From an uncultured Gammaproteobacteria bacterium (GTDB lineage Bacteria > Patescibacteriota > Microgenomatia > Levybacterales > GWA1-39-11): a DNA stretch of 64,000 nt. Position 1 is the first letter of the stretch; the number at the start of each line of letters is the position of its first letter. The stretch is taken from positions 64,058 to 128,057 of the forward strand of contig CAYRKM010000002.1 of assembly GCA_964425075.1 (NCBI GenBank), read 5' to 3'. Under the pieces are notes generated by a model. The model worked only from the letters and a program-made list of their open reading frames with translations, had not been told where the DNA came from and did no database searches. This document shows positions 5,047 to 43,702 of the stretch, in pieces. A program made the position numbers and the translations under genes.

Positions 5047-5118
5047 ATTTAGTTCTAAATTAAAATTTAACTCTAACTTAGAAAATTCCTAATTACTAAT
5101 TGCTAAAAAATGACCGTG

Positions 5119-5191
5119 CGCCCTCGAAGGGACTCGAACCCCCAACCTAATCGTTAGAACCGATGTGCTCTATCCATTGAGCTACGAGGGC
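5119..5191 (-). tRNA. tRNA-Arg (TCT)
   Basis: Hand-folded. Acceptor GCCCTCG/CGAGGGC, anticodon loop GTTCTAA, T-loop TTCGAGT. There is one mismatch at the top of the anticodon stem. Confidence 0.8.
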
Positions 5192-7808: not shown

Positions 7809-10800
7809 TTGAGTATTATGGAGACTTTACATTCCGGTTTTGATCATCCTCCCGTTGGTCCTGCTCCACATCCTGATTCTTCAGGTAGACCCGTCACCCA
7901 CCCACTTCCTGGCGAGCTAGATGGGGAAGGAATGCTTGATCCAACATCTTTGGATTTCTGGCGAAATCTTCATGCTAACCTTACAGGCTTTATAAGCAAG
8001 AACTATCCCTTTTCAGATTTCCTTAAGAATTTCGATAGTGAGAAAGGGAAAGTGGGTCGCACACATTCAAATGGCGATACAAACGCCACATACGCATACC
8101 TTAATGCAATTTATAAACAGCGTTCATTCTCGCATCCCGGCCATCCTACTCTTGAGCAGCATATCGTCTCGCAATTCACACCTCCTACAGATGACCCCGA
8201 CTTTGCTGAAATTGTTGAAGAAACCCGCTCTCTTATTAGACAGCGTTTTCCAGAACATCAGCTTCCTAGAACGACAAGTCTTGTCAAGCTCCAAGATCCG
8301 GAATTTTGGAGCGAATTTGAGGATGAGCTTTCAAAAACTCCTTCGAGTTCAATATTTGCGGATTTTTTAAAAGGAGGAGGTGGCCTTTCTGAAGACGGTA
8401 GTCAGATGCAGGGAAAGTATCATGATGTCTGGCTTGATATATACGATCCTCGGGGTAGAACTGAATTTAGAAATGCATATAAGGAACAAACAGGAAGAGA
8501 TATAGATACTGATTCTGCAAGAGACGCTCAGAGGATTTTCTTCGAAGTAGCACCAGCACGTATAAAAGCACAGCTTATTAAGAGATATCCGAGAATTTTT
8601 AGTGGATTTGCAGTAGAGTGGGTAGGAAATTCTCAATTACCAAAAGCTGCCCAGGCTGTCATTAACACTCTCGGGTGGTTAGGTGAAGATAACCGAAAAA
8701 AAATACTTGACGTACTTTCGAAATATGTGCATATAGAAACAAGTAGTACTTCGGGTTTTGATTTTTCTGCTGAAGATACTAGCATTATTCTTGGACAAGC
8801 AGCAGAACAATCAGAAGTTGTAGCAGCAGAAGTTGGTCCGCCAACACTCGAAACTATTATTCGAGACGCAACTAATACTTTTCAGCTTGTTGAACAAGAA
8901 AAGTTGGATAATGGGAATTCTGAAAATGAACAACTGTCAAGTGAGCTAACAGCTGCCCTTGAAACATCCTATCTTTACCCAACACTTCGTAATGTTTTAT
9001 ATAAACCTTTCGCACTTTTTTGGTCAAAATATCTGGAGACTCATGGTGGGTCCTCTGTTCCCGAAGATGAAATGAGAAGTTTTCTTGACACATATGCACA
9101 TAATGAAATTGCTCAAACATCTCTATCGCCCGAAGAGCAGCAAATGCTTGAGCGTCTTAAAAAAAATGTTTTTTCCACTATTTTTAGTGAATTTATAGAA
9201 ATTGCAAATTACTCTTCTCAAATTAATCACTTCAGGGAAAGAAGCATCGACGGGAAAGCAAAGCATCTGTTTTTTCATCAGGTTGAGGGAATTAAGCATC
9301 TTGTCGAAAAAGGCGCCGGAATTTTAGCTGATGAACCAGGAACCGGCAAAACAGTGACCCTTGCGCTCGCAGCATTAAATCGAGTTGACCAAAAATTTCG
9401 AGAACCTGGAAAAATAGCAAGGGTGCTAGTTGTTGGATCAAAAACTGTTAATAACAACTGGGAGGAAGAACTTGAAATGCATGTTGCGCCAGGTGATGTC
9501 GATACAGTAAATTTCAATTCTGACGAACTTGCACAGTTAAGCCAGGCAAAACGCCTTGAAATAATGGCACAAAGATTGAAAAATCCTACAGCGGATAGAC
9601 AAGTTTTGCTTGTCAATTACGATCTGTTTCGCAATTCATTTTTTCAGGAACTCCTTCATTCTGCAGGAATTGACTGTACAATAATTGATGAAGCTCATAA
9701 TGTAAAATCGCGTTTTATGGATTCTATTGCTGAGCATAACGACGACACGTCCCATAATGCTCGACTTGCAAAACGCACAACAAATCTTTATAGATTTCTT
9801 CTTTCCAACCCGAATATGGATGTTTATTTGGGTACTAGCACTCCCTTCGTCAAAGAATTAATAGAGCCGCTTATCATGGGTCACCTGGTCGATAGGTGGA
9901 GTCTTCCAATTGACCGGGTTTCAGCTTTAAGGGAGGATCCTGCTGGAGCAAATTTGGCACTTCGTGAAGTAATGATTCGGCGACGAAAGGATGCAATCAG
10001 CGATATCCCCCCAAAAGACACAGACTTTATACCAGTAGACTTAAGCCTACTTAGTGCTGCGGAACGCTCGGAGCTTGTTTCATTGGGCCTTGATATAGAA
10101 AGAGCCGATGAAAGCTCTTTCAGAAGATTTTTTTCCATGTTGTCTATTGAAGCTCAAGCAAAAATGCCCTGGCTTATTGAGAAAATAAACGAGTTAACAT
10201 CTGATGGAAGAAAGGTAGTTGTTTTTACTCCATTCGTTAATGACCAGGAAAGACTTACAGCCTCAATAAGTACGAAGGCTATTGCAAAGCGACTTATTGA
10301 TTCAGGAATTACCTCTGTTGGAGTTCTTGATGGAACTTTAAGTGAAAGCGAAAAACTTGCTGTTCAAAGAGATTTTCATGACCCGAATGGGGTAAGAGTT
10401 TTGGTAGGTAATTATCAAACGGCAGGCGAATCAATTACACTTAATTCGCCTTTCAATAGAGCAACTGAAGTAATTATACTCGTTGCACCAAACACAATAA
10501 GTAGATACATTCAAGCAATTGATAGAGTGCATAGAATCGGACAAGATGAGAAGGTTACTATTCACGTGCCTTTTCTTACGGAAGACCCTATCGCAAGGCC
10601 AGACGGAACATATGACAGACGAATTGTTAGTCGAATGCTTAGAGAACTTTCACTCTTTAATGCTGTTGTAGATGGTTTATTTTTTGTTGAAGCTGCAGAT
10701 TATTACGATGAAATTAGACGGGGAAAAAACGGAAACTCAGAACCAAGAACCGCTCTTGAAAGTGGACAAACAGTTCGTTTGGATACAGAACAGAAGCCTC

Positions 10801-12245
10801 CTGCTGCTACTAAAAAAAGGGGCTTAACTCGGGATGTTTTTGACCAAAACACTGACGGAGCAATAGTACTACCAACAAGCAGAGAGGTAAATTTAAACAG
10901 TATTGGCATAAATCACACACGACATCACCAAATAGACAGAGAGGAAGCTTTGGCAATTACAGATTACTTCGACTCAGTGAGTCAATACCCTCTCCTTACA
11001 GTTGAGCAAGAACGTATAGCATTTAGATATCTAACTGAGGGAAAATCTGTCGCACAACTTCGTGATGATGGAGCATTTCTTGCGGCAAATCCTCGTAGCA
11101 CTGCAAAAATGCTTGCTGTACTTTCCGATAGTCGCTCCGTTAGAGATGTACTTGTTGCCTGTAATTTGAGACTCGTTGCCTCAATAGCAAATAGGTACAA
11201 AGGAAGACTTCCTTACACTGACCTGCTCCAGGAGGGAAATATTGGATTAATTAAGGGAATTGACGATTTTGACCCTGAGCGTGGATTAAAGCTTTCAACA
11301 TATGCAACCTGGTGGATTAAGCAATCAATAAGGCGTGCTATTGCTAATACGTCCCGAACTATTGACTTGCCTGTACACATGCATGAAATGGTCACAAAAA
11401 TGGTGCGTGTTTCAAATGAATTTTTTAGTAAACACCAGCGCTATCCATCTATAGAGGAGCTGGTTTCAGAAGGGTTTACTATATCCCAAGTTAACACAGC
11501 TATGCGCATAGCACGACTTGGAATTTCCAACCCCTCATCTCTTGATAGAACAATAGACGATGATGGTGAAACCACAATCGGGTCATTTGTTTCGGACGAA
11601 GGTGATCTTGAAGAAGAAACTATAGCCGCGATGGAAGAGGCTGAGCAAAGTCATATCGTTGGGCGTGCACTTTTATCTTTAAGCGAACGGGAACAGTTGG
11701 TGCTTACTCTTAGATTCGGGCTTGATGGTTCTGGCACTAGAACCCTTGAACAGGTTGGTAAAGAAATTGGTGTGACAAGAGAAAGAGCACGACAAATAGA
11801 AGTTAGTGCCCTAAAAAGACTTCGAGTAAATACCGGGCTTAGGGAGGCATACGATGGAGATTCCCCAAGTTTGCTTTGGTCAAGGGAAGTCTTGCCTACA
11901 AACGTATTGCCTCTTAGACCAGGGCCAATAGACATTGAGAGGGTCTCAGCAATCTCACAAGCTCAAGAAGTAGAAAGGTTGGAGGAGGAGAAAAACAGTC
12001 TTGAATTTGGCAGACAAGTTGTGGAACAAATAAAAATGGTACCTGATATATGGAATGCTTTAACTGATAGAGAGAAGACGCTTTTGACTCTTTATTTTAA
12101 AGGCACATTTGACCACAACACTACTAAAAGTAGACTTTCAAAAATCTTTGGCATAACCGAACAAGAGCTGTCTGTTTACATCGAGTATTCTGTTGCTTCT
12201 CTAGCCAAACACGTTGGTATGACATCCTCTGAGCTTCCTTCTTGA
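7809..12245 (+). CDS. fusion protein: unknown N-terminal region + SNF2-family ATPase + complete sigma-70 + extra C-terminal region-4-like HTH
   Basis: Single 1478-codon ORF with no internal stop. The track start is TTG at 7809, and an ATG lies at 7818. SNF2 motifs: LADEPGTGKT, IIDEAHNVK, QAIDRVHRIGQ. Sigma motifs: YPLLTVEQE, LLQEGNIGLIKGIDDFD, TYATWWIKQSIRRAI, TIDLPVHMHE, VTRERARQIEVSALKRLR. Confidence 0.85.
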   Translation: MSIMETLHSGFDHPPVGPAPHPDSSGRPVTHPLPGELDGEGMLDPTSLDFWRNLHANLTGFISKNYPFSDFLKNFDSEKGKVGRTHSNGDTNATYAYLNAIYKQRSFSHPGHPTLEQHIVSQFTPPTDDPDFAEIVEETRSLIRQRFPEHQLPRTTSLVKLQDPEFWSEFEDELSKTPSSSIFADFLKGGGGLSEDGSQMQGKYHDVWLDIYDPRGRTEFRNAYKEQTGRDIDTDSARDAQRIFFEVAPARIKAQLIKRYPRIFSGFAVEWVGNSQLPKAAQAVINTLGWLGEDNRKKILDVLSKYVHIETSSTSGFDFSAEDTSIILGQAAEQSEVVAAEVGPPTLETIIRDATNTFQLVEQEKLDNGNSENEQLSSELTAALETSYLYPTLRNVLYKPFALFWSKYLETHGGSSVPEDEMRSFLDTYAHNEIAQTSLSPEEQQMLERLKKNVFSTIFSEFIEIANYSSQINHFRERSIDGKAKHLFFHQVEGIKHLVEKGAGILADEPGTGKTVTLALAALNRVDQKFREPGKIARVLVVGSKTVNNNWEEELEMHVAPGDVDTVNFNSDELAQLSQAKRLEIMAQRLKNPTADRQVLLVNYDLFRNSFFQELLHSAGIDCTIIDEAHNVKSRFMDSIAEHNDDTSHNARLAKRTTNLYRFLLSNPNMDVYLGTSTPFVKELIEPLIMGHLVDRWSLPIDRVSALREDPAGANLALREVMIRRRKDAISDIPPKDTDFIPVDLSLLSAAERSELVSLGLDIERADESSFRRFFSMLSIEAQAKMPWLIEKINELTSDGRKVVVFTPFVNDQERLTASISTKAIAKRLIDSGITSVGVLDGTLSESEKLAVQRDFHDPNGVRVLVGNYQTAGESITLNSPFNRATEVIILVAPNTISRYIQAIDRVHRIGQDEKVTIHVPFLTEDPIARPDGTYDRRIVSRMLRELSLFNAVVDGLFFVEAADYYDEIRRGKNGNSEPRTALESGQTVRLDTEQKPPAATKKRGLTRDVFDQNTDGAIVLPTSREVNLNSIGINHTRHHQIDREEALAITDYFDSVSQYPLLTVEQERIAFRYLTEGKSVAQLRDDGAFLAANPRSTAKMLAVLSDSRSVRDVLVACNLRLVASIANRYKGRLPYTDLLQEGNIGLIKGIDDFDPERGLKLSTYATWWIKQSIRRAIANTSRTIDLPVHMHEMVTKMVRVSNEFFSKHQRYPSIEELVSEGFTISQVNTAMRIARLGISNPSSLDRTIDDDGETTIGSFVSDEGDLEEETIAAMEEAEQSHIVGRALLSLSEREQLVLTLRFGLDGSGTRTLEQVGKEIGVTRERARQIEVSALKRLRVNTGLREAYDGDSPSLLWSREVLPTNVLPLRPGPIDIERVSAISQAQEVERLEEEKNSLEFGRQVVEQIKMVPDIWNALTDREKTLLTLYFKGTFDHNTTKSRLSKIFGITEQELSVYIEYSVASLAKHVGMTSSELPS
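9264..10583 (+). other. SNF2/Swi2-type helicase core (N-lobe plus Helicase_C lobe) inside the fusion ORF
   Basis: aa ~486-925. Walker A LADEPGTGKT (nt 9324-9353), DEAH box IIDEAHNVK (nt 9681-9707), motif III-like LGTSTPF, motif VI QAIDRVHRIGQ (nt 10512-10544). Confidence 0.8.
10938..11828 (+). other. sigma-70 regions 1.2, 2, 3 and 4 inside the fusion ORF
   Basis: aa ~1044-1340. By eye this aligns block for block with RpoD-type sigma factors, including the region 2.4 and 4.2 recognition helices. Confidence 0.85.
12036..12218 (+). other. second region-4-like HTH at the C-terminus of the fusion ORF
   Basis: aa ~1410-1470. LTDREKTLLTLYFKG...SRLSKIFGITEQELSVYIEYSVASLAKHV parallels the upstream LSEREQLVLTLRFGL...LEQVGKEIGVTRERARQIEVSALKRL. 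Confidence 0.55.
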
Positions 12246-13871: not shown

Positions 13872-13981
13872 GTATTACGTATTTTCTTGCCTCACTCATC
13901 CGTCCGAAGGTCGGATGAGCGGGATAAGAACACTTCGCCCTGCTCAGAACCTTGTCCCGTCAAAAAATCCTAGATTTTTTG

Positions 13982-15893: not shown

Positions 15894-16114
15894 GTCGGGG
15901 ATAAAGCAAGTTTGTCCCCTTCTTCATTTCATTCAGTCGGGGATAAGGAAACCTTGTCCCCACCAAATTCTTCGAGTTTGTCGGGGATAGAGGACTCGTT
16001 CTGTGAAACAGCCTGCAAGACAATCCGACCTGCCGAAGGCAATAATGTCGGGGATAGAGGACTCGTTCTGTGAAACAGTCTGCAAGACAATCCGACCTGC
16101 CGAAGGCAATAATG
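15894..16114 (-). repeat. tandem truncated tRNA-Pro-derived repeats downstream of tRNA-Pro
   Basis: GTCGGGGATA recurs starting at 15894, 15936, 15980, 16047 and 16114. The last copy is the true tRNA 3' end. The two 67-nt units (15980-16046, 16047-16113) differ at 1 nt and carry 19 nt of the tRNA T-arm/acceptor 3' side. Confidence 0.85.
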
Positions 16115-16187
16115 TCGGGGATAGAGGACTCGAACCTCCGACCTCACGGTCCCAAACCGCGCGCTCTACCAACTGAGCTAATCCCCG
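16115..16187 (-). tRNA. tRNA-Pro (TGG)
   Basis: Hand-folded. Acceptor CGGGGAT/ATCCCCG, anticodon loop TTTGGGA, T-loop TTCGAGT. Confidence 0.9.
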
Positions 16188-17452: not shown

Positions 17453-17959
17453 TTATTGAACAATCAAAGTTCCTACCATTCCCATTGCTCGATGATTACC
17501 AACGCTACAGTAGTATTCGAAACTTCCTTTTTTAGTAGCCTTAAATTTAATAGTTTCAGAACTTCCGGCCTGTAAAACTTTGGTTCTTGCACTAAATTCA
17601 TCAATCACCCAGTCATGTGTACCCTGAGCATTAGTAAACACTATTTCAACAATATCTCCCTCATTTACCGTAATAGTTTTGGGATCAAACTTAAAAGCGC
17701 TTCCTGTAACTTTAAAGGATTTAACTTCACCCTCAGCCATATCTCCATTTGACTCAGACTGTAATTCTTGGGCAACTGTAGGCTCGGCTTGAATATCAGT
17801 TGTGGTTTGCGTAGAAGGTTTTTGTGTTAAAAAGTAGGCTATTATTCCAATGACTGCAACCGCAGCAACAATTCCAATAATGATAGTGGTGCTCATTCCT
17901 TTCTGTGAATTTCTGAATTTCATAATAATTAATATGCCATTCTTTGAAAAAAATGTCAA
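17453..17959 (-). CDS. membrane-anchored cupredoxin (type-1 blue copper protein)
   Basis: N-terminal TM helix, then a cupredoxin-like domain with ligand pattern GTHDW ... YYCSVGNHRAMGM (His, Cys-x4-His-x3-Met). Confidence 0.75.
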   Translation of the reverse strand: MTFFSKNGILIIMKFRNSQKGMSTTIIIGIVAAVAVIGIIAYFLTQKPSTQTTTDIQAEPTVAQELQSESNGDMAEGEVKSFKVTGSAFKFDPKTITVNEGDIVEIVFTNAQGTHDWVIDEFSARTKVLQAGSSETIKFKATKKGSFEYYCSVGNHRAMGMVGTLIVQ

Positions 17960-17961
17960 GC

Positions 17962-19482
17962 CTAGAACCCTGGGAAGTAGTCGGTTACAATGTTCTGCCT
18001 TGAAACACCAAGACCCAAAAGCATTTTTCTATATCCATCTACCATTGAGATAGGCCCTGATAAATAAAACGTTCTGTTTTTATAGTCATTTACATATTTC
18101 TTAAGGTTTTCTTTGTTTAATCTTCCCACCCCACCTTTCCAATCAGGAGGAATATTCTTTTCATCAGTCAAGCAATAAATAGTAGTTATTCCTAGTTTTT
18201 TTGCCTCATTAAATAATTCTTTATAAACAATTTCTTCTTCTCGCCCATTGGAATAGAGCAAAACAATATCTCTTTTCTCATTGGAGTCAACTAGATATTT
18301 AATAATGCTTCGAAAAGGGGTTATTCCAATTCCTCCTGCAATAAATACCAATTTCTTGTTCTTTTCACTTGGTAAAATAAAGTCTCCAGTCAATTGGTCC
18401 GCTGTTATTTTTTCCTTTTCCCTAAATTCAAAGAGCCTTTGCTTAAAACTACTAGACTTTTCACTATATCGTACACCCAGTCTTAAAATATCCTCAGTCG
18501 GAGATGATGCGATAGTAAAAAATCTTCTGTTACCCCTTATGTCAGTTTTTAATTGAGGAACCGTCCACTCAAAATACTGCCCAGCTTTAAAAACCAAATT
18601 TTTTGGCTTTTCAAAAACAAACTCATAAGTGTTCTTGGCAATCTCTTTTTTTTCAATAAACGGAACTATGTATTTTTGTCTTTTGCTAATCAAAAATGAA
18701 AACAAATTTCCTATTACAAGCGAAAGTTCAGGTGAGGAAGCAATGAAACCGAAGGAAAACGGAGTTGAATATAGCGCTCCTACAAAAACCCCATATAAAA
18801 TCTGTAACCTTCTTGTTGGAGGAGTCGTATATGGTTCGGTGAGCATAATTGTAGCAAAAAAAACAGTTGGTAAAGCCATAAAAAACTCCTGAGTGGAGTC
18901 GCCCACGCTATTTACGCGAAACAATCCAAACAGAATATAAAACAAAAGTGAAGGGAGTATAAAGGAAAATAAAAAAACAAATCTTCTAATCTTTCTAACA
19001 ACTAACAACCCTAAGACAATAGTTGGGAATAACAAAAATGGATGTGCCACCCACCAAATGCCGCCTCCCAAATTTAAAAGACTTAAAACAACCAAGGTGA
19101 ATGCAACTGGGTTGAAGATATGGTGTTTTTTGTATGCAAAAATGTATTTTGAACCCATAGCTATAACTATGGCCATTAGATAAACTTTAACGTCTAAAAG
19201 TGATTGAAGGGGAATGAGTAAGAAAAAGAGAATAAGCCCCGTTATGTAGGCAGACTCAGAATTTATTGTAGCTTTGAATAATTTTGCAAAAAGGAAATTC
19301 ACAAAAAAAGTTACCCCAAAAAGAAATATGAGAGAAAACAATAGAGAAATTCCACCATCAGGCAAAATTCCCAGAAAGCCCAAAATTATTGAATAGAATG
19401 CTAAAGCAAGAAGTCCATACATCACGAGCCTATACATCGTGATGGAGTTGAGCAACTGGTCAATGCGTTGAAGGACAAACAT
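17962..19482 (-). CDS. polytopic membrane domain (RnfD/NqrB-like, tentative) fused to an FNR-type FAD/NAD(P)-binding reductase
   Basis: 506 aa. The N-terminal ~270 aa is multi-TM with HIFNPVAF and MLTEPYTTPPT. The C-terminal half has RFFTIASSP (RxYS-type FAD motif) and LVFIAGGIGITPF (NAD(P) motif). It lies 2 nt upstream of the cupredoxin gene. Confidence 0.65.
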   Translation of the reverse strand: MFVLQRIDQLLNSITMYRLVMYGLLALAFYSIILGFLGILPDGGISLLFSLIFLFGVTFFVNFLFAKLFKATINSESAYITGLILFFLLIPLQSLLDVKVYLMAIVIAMGSKYIFAYKKHHIFNPVAFTLVVLSLLNLGGGIWWVAHPFLLFPTIVLGLLVVRKIRRFVFLFSFILPSLLFYILFGLFRVNSVGDSTQEFFMALPTVFFATIMLTEPYTTPPTRRLQILYGVFVGALYSTPFSFGFIASSPELSLVIGNLFSFLISKRQKYIVPFIEKKEIAKNTYEFVFEKPKNLVFKAGQYFEWTVPQLKTDIRGNRRFFTIASSPTEDILRLGVRYSEKSSSFKQRLFEFREKEKITADQLTGDFILPSEKNKKLVFIAGGIGITPFRSIIKYLVDSNEKRDIVLLYSNGREEEIVYKELFNEAKKLGITTIYCLTDEKNIPPDWKGGVGRLNKENLKKYVNDYKNRTFYLSGPISMVDGYRKMLLGLGVSRQNIVTDYFPGF

Positions 19483-19530
19483 AGATCTAGTTTATCAAAA
19501 AAACTTAACACGGAGGGTATTTTCTCTAAA

Positions 19531-19628
19531 GAACTCGCAAAGTGAACGAAACTAAAGTGCCTGCGCTGAATGAAGCTGAAGTGCTTGCACTGAGTGAAGC
19601 TGAAGTGCTTGCACTGAGTGAAGCGAAG
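19531..19628 (-). repeat. tRNA-trailer tandem repeats (24-nt unit with AGTGCWWGCACT box)
   Basis: Units GAAGTGCTTGCACTGAGTGAAGCT at 19578-19601 and 19602-19624. A variant unit sits at 19554-19577 and a degenerate unit at 19531-19553. The array abuts the 3' end of tRNA-Ala. Confidence 0.85.
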
Positions 19629-19699
19629 TGGACCCGAGGGGAATTGAACCCCTCCCTCATCCATGCCATGGATGCATTCTACCGATGAACTACGGGCCC
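19629..19699 (-). tRNA. tRNA-Ala (GGC)
   Basis: Hand-folded. Acceptor GGGCCCG with the G3:U70 identity pair, anticodon arm CATCC-ATGGCAT-GGATG, T-loop TTCAATT. Confidence 0.9.
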
Positions 19700-19735
19700 G
19701 CTGTTTCATATTCTACAAAACTTAATACTAGATTT

Positions 19736-19800
19736 GAAGTGCCTGTGCTGAGGAACGTAAAGACGAAGTGCCTGCACTGAGAAACGTAAAGACGAAGTGC
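19736..19800 (-). repeat. 29-nt tandem repeat (2.2 copies) of the same box family, upstream of tRNA-Ala
   Basis: GAAGTGCCTGTGCTGAGGAACGTAAAGAC (19736-19764) and GAAGTGCCTGCACTGAGAAACGTAAAGAC (19765-19793), then GAAGTGC. Confidence 0.8.
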
Positions 19801-19806
19801 TACAAT

Positions 19807-21679: not shown

Positions 21680-21754
21680 TTTGCCTGCACTGAACAAAGC
21701 TGAATGTGCTTGCACTGAACAAAGCTGAATGTGCTTGCACTGAGTGAAACGAAG
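21680..21754 (-). repeat. tRNA-trailer tandem repeats (three 25-nt units)
   Basis: Units at 21680-21704, 21705-21729 and 21730-21754 (TGTGCTTGCACTGAACAAAGCTGAA and variants). The array abuts the 3' end of tRNA-Leu(TAA). Confidence 0.85.
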
Positions 21755-33987: not shown

Positions 33988-34128
33988 TTTTATATATTTT
34001 TTTTCAAGTTTTAGTATTACATCCTCCCAAAAAATAATCAATATGTACAAGGCTAGCGGTTAGAATTAAACAGAGCTTAAGGTGTTTTCAAAGAATTGTC
34101 GAGGCTAAAATAAGAGCAAAAACCCTTG

Positions 34129-34199
34129 CTGCCGGTCCTGGATTCGAACCAGAATAAACGGATCCAAAGTCCGTTGTCCTACCGTTAGACGAACCGGCA
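34129..34199 (-). tRNA. tRNA-Gln (TTG)
   Basis: Hand-folded. U1:A72 acceptor, anticodon arm ACGGA-CTTTGGA-TCCGT, T-loop TTCGAAT. Confidence 0.9.
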
Positions 34200-34938: not shown

Positions 34939-34975
34939 CACAGAAAGGTTTGGATAGGACTCGGATTTTGTCAAA

Positions 34976-35029
34976 GAGTCCTCTCAGGCCCACTTCGTCC
35001 GCCTACCGGCGGACTCAGTGCGGGCACTT
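34976..35029 (+). repeat. displaced duplicate of the tRNA-Leu(GAG) 3' end carrying the CTTC...AGTGCGGGCACT trailer
   Basis: The 17 nt GAGTCCTCTCAGGCCCA at 34976-34992 equals 34922-34938, and the trailer-family sequence follows it. A 5'-end fragment TTTGGGCTTGTCCTGA at 35056-35071 matches 34852-34867 at 15 of 16 positions. Confidence 0.8.
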
Positions 35030-35089
35030 TTATAAATATAGAATAGGTTTTCCTTTTTGGGCTTGTCCTGAGAAGGCAAAGCCGACGAA

Positions 35090-35162
35090 GGGCGATTAGC
35101 TCAGTTGGTAGAGCGCTTCGTTTACACCGAAGATGTCAGGGGTTCGAGCCCTCTATCGCCCA
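35090..35162 (+). tRNA. tRNA-Val (TAC)
   Basis: Hand-folded. Acceptor GGGCGAT/ATCGCCC, anticodon arm CTTCG-TTTACAC-CGAAG, T-loop TTCGAGC. Confidence 0.9.
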
Positions 35163-35186: not shown

Positions 35187-35259
35187 GCCAAGATTGCCAA
35201 GTTGGTCAAGGCGCGTGTCTGAAGAACACGTTATCCGGGTTCGATTCCTGGTCTTGGCA
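35187..35259 (+). tRNA. tRNA-Phe (GAA)
   Basis: Hand-folded. Acceptor GCCAAGA/TCTTGGC, anticodon arm CGTGT-CTGAAGA-ACACG, T-loop TTCGATT. Confidence 0.85.
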
Positions 35260-35264
35260 CAAAA

Positions 35265-35519
35265 ATGCAATATTTTGTGTACATTCTTGAATGCAGTGAT
35301 GGTTCGCTTTATACAGGCTATACAACTGATATAGAGCGAAGGGTGAAAGAGCACAACAAAGGAAAGAGCGGAGCTAAGTCTGTACGAGGGAAATTACCTG
35401 CCGAATTAGTTTACTCCGAAACCTTTGTAACTCTTTCAGAGGCATTGAAACGAGAAGCTGAAATCAAAAGTTGGAAGAGATACGAAAAACAAATGTTAAT
35501 AGCGACGAAGCGGGCGTAA
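35265..35519 (+). CDS. GIY-YIG nuclease-superfamily protein (stand-alone URI domain)
   Basis: 84 aa. YVYILECSDGSLYTGYTTDIERRVKEHN is the canonical GIY-YIG block. It starts 6 nt after tRNA-Phe. Confidence 0.85.
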   Translation: MQYFVYILECSDGSLYTGYTTDIERRVKEHNKGKSGAKSVRGKLPAELVYSETFVTLSEALKREAEIKSWKRYEKQMLIATKRA

Positions 35520-35567
35520 GAACCTTTCAATTTCATTGAAAGAACCTTGACCCCGCTCACTACGTTC

Positions 35568-37350: not shown

Positions 37351-37491
37351 GATGTGCCTGCACTGTGCAAGAAGTGTTACGTTGTGAAACAAAGTCTCGA
37401 AGTGCTTTCATCGATCAAGAAGTGCTTGCGCTGAACGAAATGGAAGCCTGCACTGAATGAAGTTGAGGTGCTTGCACTGAACGTAGTGAAG
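37351..37491 (-). repeat. tRNA-trailer repeat array downstream of tRNA-Leu(CAG)
   Basis: On the minus strand it reads CTTCACTACGTTCAGTGCAAGCACCTCAACTTCATTCAGTGCAGGC..., with 4-5 boxes of the AGTGCWWGCACT family that degenerate with distance. Confidence 0.8.
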
Positions 37492-37574
37492 TGCCCGAAA
37501 AAGGAGTCGAACCTTCACACCCATAAGGGCACAGCGTTCTGAACACTGCGTGTCTACCATTCCACCATTCGGGC
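37492..37574 (-). tRNA. tRNA-Leu (CAG)
   Basis: Hand-folded class II tRNA. Anticodon arm CAGTG-TTCAGAA-CGCTG, long variable arm, T-loop TTCGACT. Confidence 0.9.
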
Positions 37575-37718: not shown

Positions 37719-38351
37719 ATGCAAGACAGGGTAAACACTAATTCCTCTAATTTTGAAAGCAAAAGCAATTCATCTCTTAAAAAGGTTTTGTTAGTAAGCA
37801 TTTATTTATCAGCCATTCCAATATTTATCGTTTTTGTAATGCTGTTTTCTCTTTACGCAAAGTACGACGTCAATGGATATATTTCTCGTCAGAATATTTC
37901 CCTTAATTACCGAGCTTTACCTGAAAATAGTAATAATAGTACTGTTTCTCTTGAAGCAGACGACGCTAGAATTCAAGCTCTCGAGGAGTTATTTGATACT
38001 TATGACTCACCTCTAGTTGGTCATGCAGCAAAAATAGTAGAAGAGGCTGATAAGCACAATATAGACTATAGACTTTTACCCTCAATCGCTATGCAAGAAA
38101 GCACTTTGTGTAAAAAAATTATAAAAGACTCTCATAATTGCTGGGGTTTTGGAATTTATGGAGGAAAAGTAACAAAATTTGATAACTATAATGAGGCAAT
38201 AGAAACTGTAACAAGAACATTATCCAAAAAATATGTTCAAGCTGGACTTGAAGAACCACATGAAATTGTAGAGAAATATACGCCATCTGATGACGGAAAA
38301 TGGGCAAATGTAGTCAATATGATGATGGAAACTATCAAAAACTCACTTTAA
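37719..38351 (+). CDS. membrane-anchored lysozyme-superfamily peptidoglycan hydrolase-like protein (paralog 1)
   Basis: 210 aa, N-terminal TM. IVEEADKHNIDYRLLPSIAMQEST...HNCWGFG resembles the SLT/glucosaminidase catalytic-Glu region. It is a paralog of the next CDS. Confidence 0.55.
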   Translation: MQDRVNTNSSNFESKSNSSLKKVLLVSIYLSAIPIFIVFVMLFSLYAKYDVNGYISRQNISLNYRALPENSNNSTVSLEADDARIQALEELFDTYDSPLVGHAAKIVEEADKHNIDYRLLPSIAMQESTLCKKIIKDSHNCWGFGIYGGKVTKFDNYNEAIETVTRTLSKKYVQAGLEEPHEIVEKYTPSDDGKWANVVNMMMETIKNSL

Positions 38352-38538: not shown

Positions 38539-39129
38539 ATGCAACTTATAAAGGTTACATTAAATATGAAAAGATATATTTTACCTATTATACTTTTGGC
38601 TTTTGCCAACGCAGCTATGCCATGGGCCCTTATGCCTAGGGTGTATCAAGCCTACGCGAAAGATACTGCATATACAAATGCGGAACTTTCTGTGGCTTTA
38701 AAAAATACTTCAGGAAATGACATGCGTGTTGATGCTTTGAGAATTATTTTTGAAAAGCGCAACTCTCCTTTAGTGCCTTATGCTAAGGCATATGTAGAAC
38801 TTGCTGATAAGCACGGTGTTGACTGGAAACTTTTACCTGCTATTTCAGGTCTTGAATCCTCATTTGGTATTCATTTAATGCCTGGCTCCCACAATGGTTA
38901 TGGGTGGGGTGGTGGACATATCTACTTCTCGTCTTGGGAAGAGGGTATTGATACTATTAACAAGGCTCTTGCTGAAAAGTATTATGGCCGTGGGGCAAAT
39001 ACTGTATGGAAAATTGGTCCTATTTATGCTGAGTCGCCTACTTGGGCTGTGAGAGTAAATAGCTTTATGGAGCAAATTGAGGCCGAGCATAACAAATTGC
39101 AAAACTCTAAGCTTGCCTTGACTATTTAA
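38539..39129 (+). CDS. secreted lysozyme-superfamily peptidoglycan hydrolase-like protein (paralog 2)
   Basis: YVELADKHGVDWKLLPAISGLESSFG...HNGYGWGG parallels paralog 1. The start is probably the ATG at 38566 (MKRYILPIILLAFANA signal peptide). Confidence 0.55.
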   Translation: MQLIKVTLNMKRYILPIILLAFANAAMPWALMPRVYQAYAKDTAYTNAELSVALKNTSGNDMRVDALRIIFEKRNSPLVPYAKAYVELADKHGVDWKLLPAISGLESSFGIHLMPGSHNGYGWGGGHIYFSSWEEGIDTINKALAEKYYGRGANTVWKIGPIYAESPTWAVRVNSFMEQIEAEHNKLQNSKLALTI

Positions 39130-39170: not shown

Positions 39171-39253
39171 GCCCGAGTGGTGAAATGGTATACACGCTAG
39201 TTTTAGGAACTAGTACCCTTACAGGTGTGGAGGTTCGAGTCCTCTCTCGGGCA
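39171..39253 (+). tRNA. tRNA-Leu (TAG)
   Basis: Hand-folded class II tRNA. Anticodon arm CTAGT-TTTAGGA-ACTAG, long variable arm, T-loop TTCGAGT. Confidence 0.9.
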
Positions 39254-39352
39254 CTTCACTACGTTCAGTGCAAGCACCTCAACTTCATTCAGTGCAGGCT
39301 TCCATTTCGTTCAGTGCAAGTACTTCGGGGCCTTGTTTCTCAGCGCTTGCAC
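39254..39352 (+). repeat. tRNA-trailer repeat array downstream of tRNA-Leu(TAG)
   Basis: The first 72 nt (39254-39325) match the reverse complement of 37420-37491 at all but 2 positions. Four boxes of the AGTGCWWGCACT family are present. Confidence 0.85.
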
Positions 39353-39387
39353 AAAAAATACCTATTCTCTTGCACCCATAATTTCGC

Positions 39388-43525: not shown

Positions 43526-43534
43526 CACAAAATG

Positions 43535-43623
43535 CGCTGAAGCGTTGCATTGACATTGCAGAGGCCAGAGAAGGAATTTCATTAATGAAATTCGACTGTC
43601 GTCAGCGAATCCTCTTGGGTCCA
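43535..43623 (+). pseudogene. decayed tRNA-Val-like remnant
   Basis: 20 nt at 43541-43560 are identical to the anticodon arm at 43475-43494. The remnant ends in ...GGGTCCA directly followed by the CTTCACTTCGTTCAGTGCA trailer. No intact T-arm or acceptor is present. Confidence 0.45.
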
Positions 43624-43690
43624 CTTCACTTCGTTCAGTGCAGGCACTTCAGTTTCGTTCAGCACGGGTACTTCGTTACACTCAGCACAG
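43624..43690 (+). repeat. tRNA-trailer repeat array
   Basis: CTTCACTTCGTTCAGTGCAGGCACTTCAGTTTCGTTCAGCACGGGTACTTCGTTACACTCAGCACAGACAC, i.e. three progressively degenerate units. Confidence 0.8.
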
Positions 43691-43702
43691 ACACATTTTC
43701 CC

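Follow-up and report, generated by a model that had tools for sequence, protein, structure and literature searches.

Tandem repeats at tRNA gene 3′ ends in a Candidatus Levybacteria contig as probable relics of a tRNA-flank GIY-YIG cassette

The tRNA-linked repeats (TLRs) of Escherichia coli, reportedly described by Egan and Landy in 1978 and by Rudd in 1999, are among the closest described counterparts of the repeats reported here. TLRs lie downstream of tRNA and rRNA genes, finish with an 18–19-bp repetition of the preceding gene's 3′ end, are often tandem, and have had no known function in tRNA operons since 1978 (PMC8144298). A second precedent is SegB of phages T4 and T6, a free-standing GIY-YIG endonuclease encoded within a tRNA cluster, which cuts there, promotes inheritance of its flanks, and drives tandem amplification via microhomology and recombination (PMC2330249; PMC13096335). 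Here we analyse arrays of short tandem repeats at tRNA gene 3′ ends in a 64-kb stretch of bacterial DNA (contig CAYRKM010000002.1, referred to as the window) assigned by RarA homologues to Candidatus Levybacteria (Microgenomates; 37.8% G+C), a member of the candidate phyla radiation (CPR, or Patescibacteria). We name the repeat unit L, with the consensus (CA)CTTCGGCAAGCTCAGTGCAAGC, and argue that the arrays are probably relics of a tRNA-flank cassette of CPR/Patescibacteria that carries a GIY-YIG nuclease gene, L being its conserved left-end module.

The window holds 14 tRNA genes (ARAGORN and Rfam), placed as in the initial annotation, which had been made by a model from the sequence and had described tandem 23–29-nt repeats at tRNA 3′ ends. 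Tandem Repeats Finder recovers arrays at 19543–19630 (period 24, 3.7 copies), 21682–21743 (period 25, 2.5 copies), and 43622–43694 (period 23, 3.1 copies), and reproduces the figures first given for a 29-nt variant at 19736–19800 (period 29, 2.2 copies). At tRNA-Ala, tRNA-Leu(UAA), tRNA-Leu(CAG), and tRNA-Leu(UAG), the first unit begins immediately at the 3′ end called by ARAGORN (offset 0; N73-C/TTCG), and units are also present 3′ of a displaced copy of the tRNA-Leu(GAG) 3′ end and of a pseudo-tRNA remnant near tRNA-Val(GAC). The estimate of roughly twenty boxes, all next to tRNA genes, likewise holds: a regular expression for the core (TCAG[CT][GA]C..G..) finds 18 boxes in 64 kb, in 7 clusters, each within 135 nt of a tRNA gene (18/18) and on its strand (18/18). 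In a self-BLAST of the window, the dispersed repeats are the tRNAs and the arrays only. The repeats are genuine and far beyond chance.

The palindrome that had been seen in each unit stands only in part. The exact form AGTGCWWGCACT occurs twice, against 0.02 expected, and with up to two mismatches 22 times, against 7.0 ± 2.8 expected, a count reached by 0 of 100 shuffles. The feature that is conserved is an asymmetric core, CTTCR-N-YTCAGTGCARGCAC, in which CTTC is followed by 7–14 variable bases and then by YTCAGTGCARGCAC. The palindrome is only partial, and the "palindromic box" is a by-product of the asymmetric core. A profile hidden Markov model (HMM) of L, trained solely on independent metagenomic copies and then run on the window, identifies 8 units at E < 0.01 (best 9e-6), all inside the arrays, and nothing outside the arrays in the 64 kb reaches this threshold. 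In the tRNA genes themselves, position 74 is C in all 14 (e.g. 5118–5191, 34128–34199, and 35187–35260), followed by A in nine (N73-C-A) and by TTC, which is the start of L, in the other five (N73-C-TTC), while the full CCA is encoded by no window tRNA gene, tRNA-His possibly excepted.

Beyond the window, a 16-mer scan of one genome per species gave mostly chance matches, as expected for the size of the collection; about 33 of its 129 matches carry the extended motif (A)CACTTCG[AG]C-N3-5-GCTCAGTGCA[AG]GC. Among named CPR genomes, L lies at the very end of tRNA-Glu (loci L020 and L067; loci are numbered L followed by three digits) and of tRNA-Gly and tmRNA (L108 and L112). A scan of metagenomes for a T loop followed after 11–14 nt by L gave at least 120 loci (L131–L250), against a handful expected by chance on a rough estimate. 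As these loci were chosen for L beside a T loop, all frequencies drawn from them are conditional on that selection, and the counts below refer to the metagenome loci listed. They include at least 104 ARAGORN-confirmed tRNAs, of 34 anticodon types, with L at the 3′ end; this figure is a minimum, since tRNA-Asn and tRNA-Asp genes with introns escape detection. At 99 of the 104, L is a single unit, making the window's arrays of 3–6 units unusual.

Junctions in the metagenome loci read N73, N73-CA, or N73-CCA and then CTTCG, with N73-CA favoured, and the form of L that starts at these positions, CTTCR-N3-18-YTCAGTGCARGC, is present in the window units. The next tRNA often begins 2–5 nt after L, so L is transcribed there as an operon spacer; elsewhere an operon terminator follows L directly. 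The variable middle of L often contains covarying hairpins (ATCGTC/GACGAT, TCCGCC/GGCGGA, and GCGAGT/ACTCGC). At several sites where ARAGORN is silent (in L160, L189, L192, L195, and L165), L is preceded by a clear-cut T arm and acceptor 3′ end and lies 5′ of a GIY-YIG gene. These sites fit intron-containing tRNA-Asn or tRNA-Asp genes, which have been reported for Patescibacteria (PMC13011429).

GIY-YIG genes were found by HMM, a strict regular expression having missed true ones, and the metagenome set contains 70 matches in 50 of the 120 listed loci (~700 kb), with up to 5 in a single 13-kb locus. UPF0213 GIY-YIG genes are thus packed extremely densely in these CPR tRNA clusters. L lies within 300 nt upstream on the same strand in 40 of 62 GIY-YIG genes, mostly 5–60 nt away, where about 3% would be expected. 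Viewed from the tRNA, a GIY-YIG gene is found within 400 nt downstream of 29 of the 91 tRNAs with L, compared with 29 of the 185 without it (Fisher p = 0.003), and another same-strand tRNA comes after the GIY-YIG gene in 27 of 60 cases. In the genome loci, the true family yields 4 GIY-YIG genes in 162 kb and the chance-hit control loci none in 673 kb. Relatives of the GIY-YIG gene present in the window are located directly after L in L067, L108, and L112.

Collapsing redundancy leaves 115 junctions, 101 of them evaluable: L is solo at 51 and is followed by an open reading frame (ORF) at 36. In 17 of the 36 loci with L and a GIY-YIG gene, a copy of the last 15 nt of the tRNA (≤2 mismatches) recurs at a distance of 322–414 nt (537 nt in one case), counted from the first base of L, and nine ORF-less junctions, here called minis, have a tRNA 3′-end copy at 78–148 nt. 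Minis and solo L are commoner than the full unit. Alignment of the 17 cassettes shows a common order. The tRNA 3′ end (GGTTC/GAATCC...N73) is followed by CA, L, a short variable stretch (10–60 nt), and an ATG that opens the ORF (MWYVYMLLCDQKTFYVGIT...KGWSRAKKQML), in which an inverted L copy (R1) supplies the codons of the C-terminal tail, NTCTELAEV. The cassette ends in R2, a second inverted arm resembling L (GGATGAGAAGTTTAYCCTGAGC...CCGAAGG), and then a 17-nt direct copy of tRNA positions 57–73. Its left direct repeat is the 3′ part of the tRNA itself, from G57 in the T loop to N73, T-loop positions 56 and 57 flank its right boundary in many different tRNAs, and its termini, CTTCGG and CCGAAG, form an inverted pair. 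In 7 of 26 right ends, GAGAAGTT is preceded by ≥7 nt that are antisense to the start of the target repeat, compared with 4% in shuffles.

The encoded proteins are 84–100-aa UPF0213 catalytic domains. Paralogues within one locus share only 31–56% identity, in contrast to the neighbouring L, whose DNA sequence hardly varies (e.g. L188, 4891–8576). Tandem L of 2–4 units separates the tRNA from the ORF in L140, L173, L195, and L206, and an older L follows two of the cassettes. The architecture, the accompanying nuclease gene, the defined length of the unit, and its repeats, both direct and inverted, are read directly from these loci, as is presence or absence between relatives (below); from them we infer mobility of the cassette and a role of the nuclease in it. 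With its fixed size, inverted arms, target duplication, internal nuclease gene, minis, and insertion polymorphism, the family has what typifies an insertion element and its non-autonomous derivatives. Within the literature searched, neither a tRNA-flank UPF0213 cassette nor L was found described, and the family is apparently undescribed.

The rarA/tRNA-Ala locus of the window was compared with that of four relatives, L122, L124, L125, and L127 (RarA identity 92%, 91%, 83%, and 82%). In all four, tRNA-Ala(GGC) is divergent from rarA, and arrays are absent on both sides of the tRNA, with no unit anywhere in the loci (up to 21 kb). Alignment with the relatives shows that the upstream insert in the window is exactly 2 × 29 nt (58 nt), bounded by CACTTC. 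The uninterrupted site in the relatives reads ...ATTGTAC/CACTTCAAATCTAG, the latter part being the promoter −35 region, so the 29-nt units enter the tRNA-Ala promoter region precisely at its CACTTC, where the window has a promoter-like site (TTCAAA-17-TAGAAT, 19738–19710). On the 3′ side of tRNA-Ala, gene order varies between close relatives (17453–19628 in the window): the adjacent gene encodes a cupredoxin in L125 and L127, small ORFs and ApbE are found in L122 and L124, and a 506-aa NAD-binding oxidoreductase is found in the window, placing the L array at a rearrangement junction.

Because the relatives keep the rarA/tRNA-Ala locus without an array, the window arrays are recent lineage-specific insertions into a rearrangement-prone tRNA flank, and they do not belong to a conserved apparatus of tRNA expression. 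Absence from relatives had been named beforehand as a sign of a local slippage artefact; the absence is found for close relatives, but an artefact is not indicated, since many other CPR genomes have L at the 3′ ends of tRNA and tmRNA genes. The 29-nt unit also provides a promoter-like −35 hexamer, with a TG-extended −10 (TACAAT) directly 5′ of the rarA start (19777–19806, + strand). To judge by this consensus match alone, the insertion may have altered rarA transcription.

All parts of the cassette occur in the window (Table 1): solo or tandem L at tRNA-Ala, tRNA-Leu(UAA), tRNA-Leu(CAG), tRNA-Leu(UAG), and the tRNA-Val(GAC) remnant, one mini, right-end footprints at tRNA-Gly(UCC), tRNA-Pro, and tRNA-Leu(GAG), and one intact UPF0213 GIY-YIG gene.

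Table 1. Positions of L arrays, cassette parts, and related features in the 64-kb window
Feature	Position	Strand	Description
Right-end footprint 3′ of tRNA-Gly(UCC)	13917..13958	-	Antisense copy GGGACAAGG, inverted L (TTCTGAGCAGGGCGAAGTG), diverged sense copy
TLR-like repeats 3′ of tRNA-Pro(UGG)	15900..16113	-	Two 67-nt units ending in 18-nt tRNA 3′ end GAGTCCTCTATCCCCGAC
L array directly 3′ of tRNA-Ala(GGC)	19533..19628	-	Three 23–24-nt units (CTTCGCTTCACTCAGTGCAAGCA and variants), one degenerate
tRNA-Ala(GGC) gene	19629..19699	-	No CCA encoded; A73-C common to first L unit
Two 29-nt L-variant units (CACTTCGTCTTTACGTTYCTCAGYRCAGG)	19736..19800	-	Between rarA start and −35 box
L array 3′ of tRNA-Leu(UAA)	21682..21754	-	Three 25-nt units; nhmmer E = 7e-5, 2e-3, 7e-3
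TLR-like insertion 3′ of tRNA-Leu(GAG)	34940..34993	+	36 nt, then exact 18-nt tRNA 3′-end copy
ORF-less mini	34993..35090	+	L hairpin subtype (34993–35030), AT-rich spacer, inverted R arm (35062–35090, ...CCTGAG...GACGAAG)
Small GIY-YIG nuclease gene, 84 aa, UPF0213 type	35265..35519	+	Pfam PF01541, E = 4.9e-18
Putative right-flank remnant	35520..35567	+	...AGCGACGAAG, collapsed pseudo-tRNA-Gly ending CCCCGCTC, partial L ACTACGTTC; then tRNA-Gly(GCC)
L array 3′ of tRNA-Leu(CAG)	37351..37491	-	Three clear units, then ~three degenerate
L array 3′ of tRNA-Leu(UAG)	39254..39353	+	Found by core regular expression, window self-BLAST, and L profile HMM
Pseudo-tRNA remnant (43527–43624, ends GGGTCCAC) and three-unit L array (43624–43694)	43527..43694	+	3′ of tRNA-Val(GAC)

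In nhmmer searches, the tRNA-Ala 3′ array scores E = 1e-5 and 4e-5, and the array on the tRNA-Val(GAC) side E = 5e-5. The 18-nt copy of the tRNA-Leu(GAG) end (34976–34993) begins in the T loop (GAGTCCTCTCAGGCCCAC), which is the same boundary as that of the right-hand direct repeat of full cassettes. The mini that follows fills the gap between this displaced end and tRNA-Val(UAC) exactly, its R arm abutting the latter, and folds with z = −3.4. Its layout is found also between tRNA-Leu(GAG) and the next tRNA in L188 and L215, and in the Parcubacteria locus L108, where the hairpin has z = −4.65. Only 4 nt separate tRNA-Phe from the start of the GIY-YIG gene, and tRNA-Gly(GCC) comes next; the relatives of the gene product in the PDB, 1zg2 and 1ywl, are both UPF0213 proteins, and the order tRNA-Phe, L, GIY-YIG gene, tRNA-Gly is seen in L133 and L188. 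Our assignment of the segment after this gene as a right-flank remnant comes from reading the bases by eye and is provisional.

At tRNA-Gly(UCC), the diverged sense copy of the tRNA 3′ end is TTCTTATCCCGCTC, and the layout is that of cassette right ends. The tRNA-Pro repeats (Tandem Repeats Finder period 67, 2.3 copies, 98% matches) are followed by a hairpin remnant, GGGGACAAGGTTTCCTTATCCCCGAC. The inverted R arm (CTGAG...CGAAG) or the copy starting at G57 of the T loop is seen at 34993–35090 (L and R), 13917–13958, and 15900–16113; next to the tRNA-Ala, tRNA-Leu(UAA), tRNA-Leu(CAG), and tRNA-Leu(UAG) arrays, neither the R arm nor the tRNA 3′-end copy was found. Inserts are 54–67 nt long in the window and 80–410 nt elsewhere. 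A relaxed HMM search, too, found neither a GIY-YIG ORF nor a GIY-YIG pseudogene 3′ of any window array, and we file the arrays as apparent ORF-less remnants rather than intact cassettes.

Two observations concern neighbouring genes. The tRNA-Leu(CAG) gene with its array (37419–37521) and the tRNA-Leu(UAG) gene with its array (39224–39326) form an inverted duplication of 103 nt with 94% identity, which brackets two paralogous glucosaminidase-like ORFs (37719–38351 and 38539–39129). A sigma-70 family ORF of 1478 aa (7809–12245, + strand) has RpoD-like regions at residues ~1050–1340 and an N-terminal extension of ~1000 aa without an NCBIfam match.

The various states of the cassette could arise from one process. 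A nuclease acting in cis or in trans would break DNA at tRNA genes, repair would copy from an occupied locus either fully or abortively, and rejoining via CA or CAC(TTC) microhomology would leave a whole cassette, a mini, or nothing but L. Solo L in the window would have been seeded at tRNA ends reading CAC and once at CACTTC in the tRNA-Ala promoter region; slippage or unequal exchange would then have grown the seeds locally into 2–6 tandem units, and the ORF would have been lost from most sites. Abortive copying would account for the CACTTC-bounded insert, truncated terminal units, and direct fusion of solo L to N73 or N73-CA, and, helped by slippage, for tandem growth. The arrays may be selfish or neutral, possibly cleavage-resistant alleles, and would be transcribed and trimmed off as tRNA trailers; most likely they are themselves inert relics. 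Among the four roles that the initial annotation had offered, only a recombination target comes near to this proposal.

Several points weigh against the cassette origin. Cleavage and transposition are proposals, and the UPF0213 proteins (84–100 aa) are bare catalytic domains without a DNA-binding domain or demonstrated site specificity. The metagenome loci were preselected for L beside the T loop, which makes their frequencies conditional. Solo L, often fused to an operon terminator, is hard to derive from the cassette by simple recombination. The paralogue identities of 31–56% speak against recent bursts and fit long-resident, possibly domesticated genes, and L is far better conserved than the ORF, so it may have a sequence-specific function of its own. 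The GIY-YIG gene of the window has no L in front of it, and no GIY-YIG pseudogene stands beside the arrays.

A further difficulty comes from outside the CPR, where L-like arrays occur in Chloroflexota, Bacteroidota, and cyanobacterial plasmids. Near-identical 23–31-nt tandem arrays of CACTTCG[AG]C...GCTCAGTGCA[AG]GC are found in Anaerolineales, Chitinophagales, Dokdonia, and a Gloeothece plasmid (L004 6432–6521, L087 5–123, L042 4938–4983, L002 332–429, and L128 2455–2565), a ~21-mer thus being conserved across phyla. At these loci, no tRNA, GIY-YIG gene, or shared neighbour gene was found nearby. L-like tandem units are present on Gloeothece and Anabaena plasmids.

These arrays in other phyla suit the most substantial alternative, in which L is an independent "nano-element" or a host-selected RNA or DNA signal, for instance for processing of a tRNA trailer or 5′ UTR, that seeds by itself at CA/CAC, and GIY-YIG genes merely share its niche downstream of tRNAs or exploit L for landing or expression. 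Solo L is the commonest state (51/101), L DNA is near-identical across phyla and across cassettes whose proteins are ~40% identical, and L has inserted at CACTTC away from any tRNA 3′ end. Two neighbouring tRNAs are often separated by L and nothing else, which means that L must be transcribed and processed there, and L has the covarying hairpins in its variable middle. Mobile repeats of 21–27 nt have a precedent in the cyanobacterial small dispersed repeats (SDRs; Elhai 2008, as cited in PMC5861425 and PMC3116915). Against these points, L lies inside a segment bounded by tRNA 3′-end copies and so acts like an integral piece of the insertion, the far end of the cassette has its inverted counterparts (R1 and R2), orthologous tRNAs in close relatives do without L, which is therefore not needed for tRNA maturation, and the arrays have no structure beyond chance. 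On balance, we regard an independent L as unlikely, and the cassette origin as the better account.

The tests for RNA structure bear also on the earlier suggestion of a tRNA-trailer processing element. Compared with dinucleotide shuffles, the arrays show no excess of folding (z = −1.4, +0.6, −0.9, and +0.2), and Rfam 15 returns tRNA and tmRNA models only, whether the window is searched at gathering thresholds or 8 related loci at E ≤ 1. The lack of an Rfam match and folding no better than in shuffles lead us to reject an RNA motif and, together with the absence of the arrays in relatives, tell against a conserved processing element. A unit that is a degenerate copy of the tRNA T arm and acceptor is rejected because the invariant G53 and C61 do not fit, and a type III toxin–antitoxin RNA array or CRISPR array because the units are contiguous, without spacers. 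The genes downstream of the arrays encode an oxidoreductase, a Na/Ca exchanger, an HD protein, and similar products.

A much weaker alternative is the one favoured in the initial annotation, that the boxes are binding sites of a dimeric protein that regulates, blocks, or terminates tRNA transcription. It would draw on the 5+5 palindrome AGTGCAAGCACT of some units, the strictly tRNA-proximal placement of the boxes, and the array that abuts the tRNA-Ala promoter and gives a promoter-like hexamer towards rarA. However, there are only 2 exact palindromes, and the variants AGCAC, GCTTC, GCACC, and GCACA break the symmetry uncompensated, so a palindromic structural or binding unit, with exact copies rare and variants without covariation, is rejected as the conserved feature. 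Every copy has the orientation of its tRNA, a regularity for which a symmetric site gives no reason, most tRNAs elsewhere have a single copy (99/104), and no terminator-like site follows the window arrays. The absence of arrays at the tRNA-Ala locus of close relatives argues equally against a regulatory, roadblock, or terminator role as a conserved function. We consider such a binding site very improbable; the interpretation given in the initial annotation is supported in part, but not in its regulatory reading.

No integrase, transposase, or RAYT (Y1 transposase) was found among ~30 flanking ORFs scanned in the window. REP/REPIN elements mobilized by a RAYT are rejected on that ground for the ~30 window ORFs and because the arrays do not fold beyond shuffles. 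As improbable as the protein-binding site is that the arrays and tRNA 3′-end copies are att-site scars of integrase-mediated prophage or island integration, unrelated to GIY-YIG genes: direct repeats from the T loop to the tRNA 3′ end are a hallmark of tRNA-targeting integrases, and a serine recombinase lies near tRNA-His in the relative L127, but the inserts in the window (54–67 nt) are far from island-sized, those elsewhere are only 80–150 or ~400 bp long and carry a GIY-YIG ORF and never an integrase, the same L occurs at 34 tRNA species, beyond the reach of a fixed attP, no integrase is present among the window ORFs examined, and L has no match in 50,697 phage genomes and a single match in IMG/VR, on which ground a phage att site is also rejected.

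If the arrays are cassette relics, the repeats are the trace of an undescribed ~400-bp selfish element that populates tRNA flanks in Patescibacteria, and the widespread UPF0213 nuclease family would gain a first candidate role. The cassette would further offer a testable origin for the E. coli TLRs, unexplained since 1978, and would explain "junk" ORFs and assembly breaks beside tRNAs in CPR metagenome bins. For annotation, it would follow that such arrays are not to be called genes or regulatory sites.

Among known systems, the cyanobacterial SDRs, compared here by description, resemble L as 21–27-nt insertions in conserved sequence that encode no protein. According to Elhai et al. (2008), SDRs are reportedly found only in Nostocaceae and are not said to be tRNA-linked. 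MITEs and REPINs (PMC3116915 and PMC3184786) share with the minis the form of short, ORF-less hairpin derivatives with inverted arms, as well as dispersal and presence/absence polymorphism. The cassettes differ from them in having no DDE or RAYT transposase, in strict placement at tRNA 3′ ends, and in the 17-nt tRNA duplication, and the window arrays differ in being head-to-tail copies of one arm that do not fold.

SegB, with a GIY-YIG gene between tRNA genes, is the experimental analogue for the proposed mechanism. Seg proteins are larger and have DNA-binding modules, whereas the cassette proteins are UPF0213 domains of 84–100 aa; the cassettes, moreover, are chromosomal in CPR and have inverted arms, a 17-nt target duplication, and ORF-less minis.

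The resemblance to TLRs is architectural. Like TLRs, the L arrays lie directly 3′ of the tRNA in the same orientation (offset 0 at tRNA-Ala, tRNA-Leu(UAA), tRNA-Leu(CAG), and tRNA-Leu(UAG)), and the window duplications at tRNA-Pro (15979–16132), tRNA-Leu(GAG) (34976–34993), and tRNA-Gly(UCC) fit the TLR definition. Unlike TLRs, the 23–29-nt units have no more than CAC or GCAC in common with the tRNA end (3–7 nt; CAGGCAC, 7 nt, at tRNA-Leu(UAA)), and TLRs have no associated nuclease gene. The TLR unit of E. coli K-12 tyrT/tyrV (NC_000913.3, 1286650–1287630) consists of an antisense GGGGAAGGAT, GAGAAG, and ~100 nt later a sense 19-nt copy, AATCCTTCCCCCACCACCA. This is the right-end layout of the CPR cassettes, and the sense copy starts in the T loop. 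One E. coli strain examined is without the tyrT TLR. The profile of the CPR right ends does not connect with the tyrT TLR (E = 2.5, not significant), so homology is unproven and the likeness is an architecture-only lead.

A broader proposal, which we put forward tentatively and consider doubtful, is that UPF0213 (YhbQ/Slx1-like) GIY-YIG proteins are the nucleases of pan-bacterial tRNA-3′-end cassettes, whose relics would be the TLRs of E. coli, the L and R elements of CPR, and the ubiquitous intergenic "CACTTCGACAAGCTCAG..." repeats of Chloroflexota, Bacteroidota, and cyanobacteria. To our knowledge, UPF0213 is a near-universal bacterial family without an assigned function. Were the proposal true, the 17-nt duplication starting in the T loop and the antisense copy made in situ would point to a new, structure-specific mechanism of insertion acting on tRNA-gene DNA.

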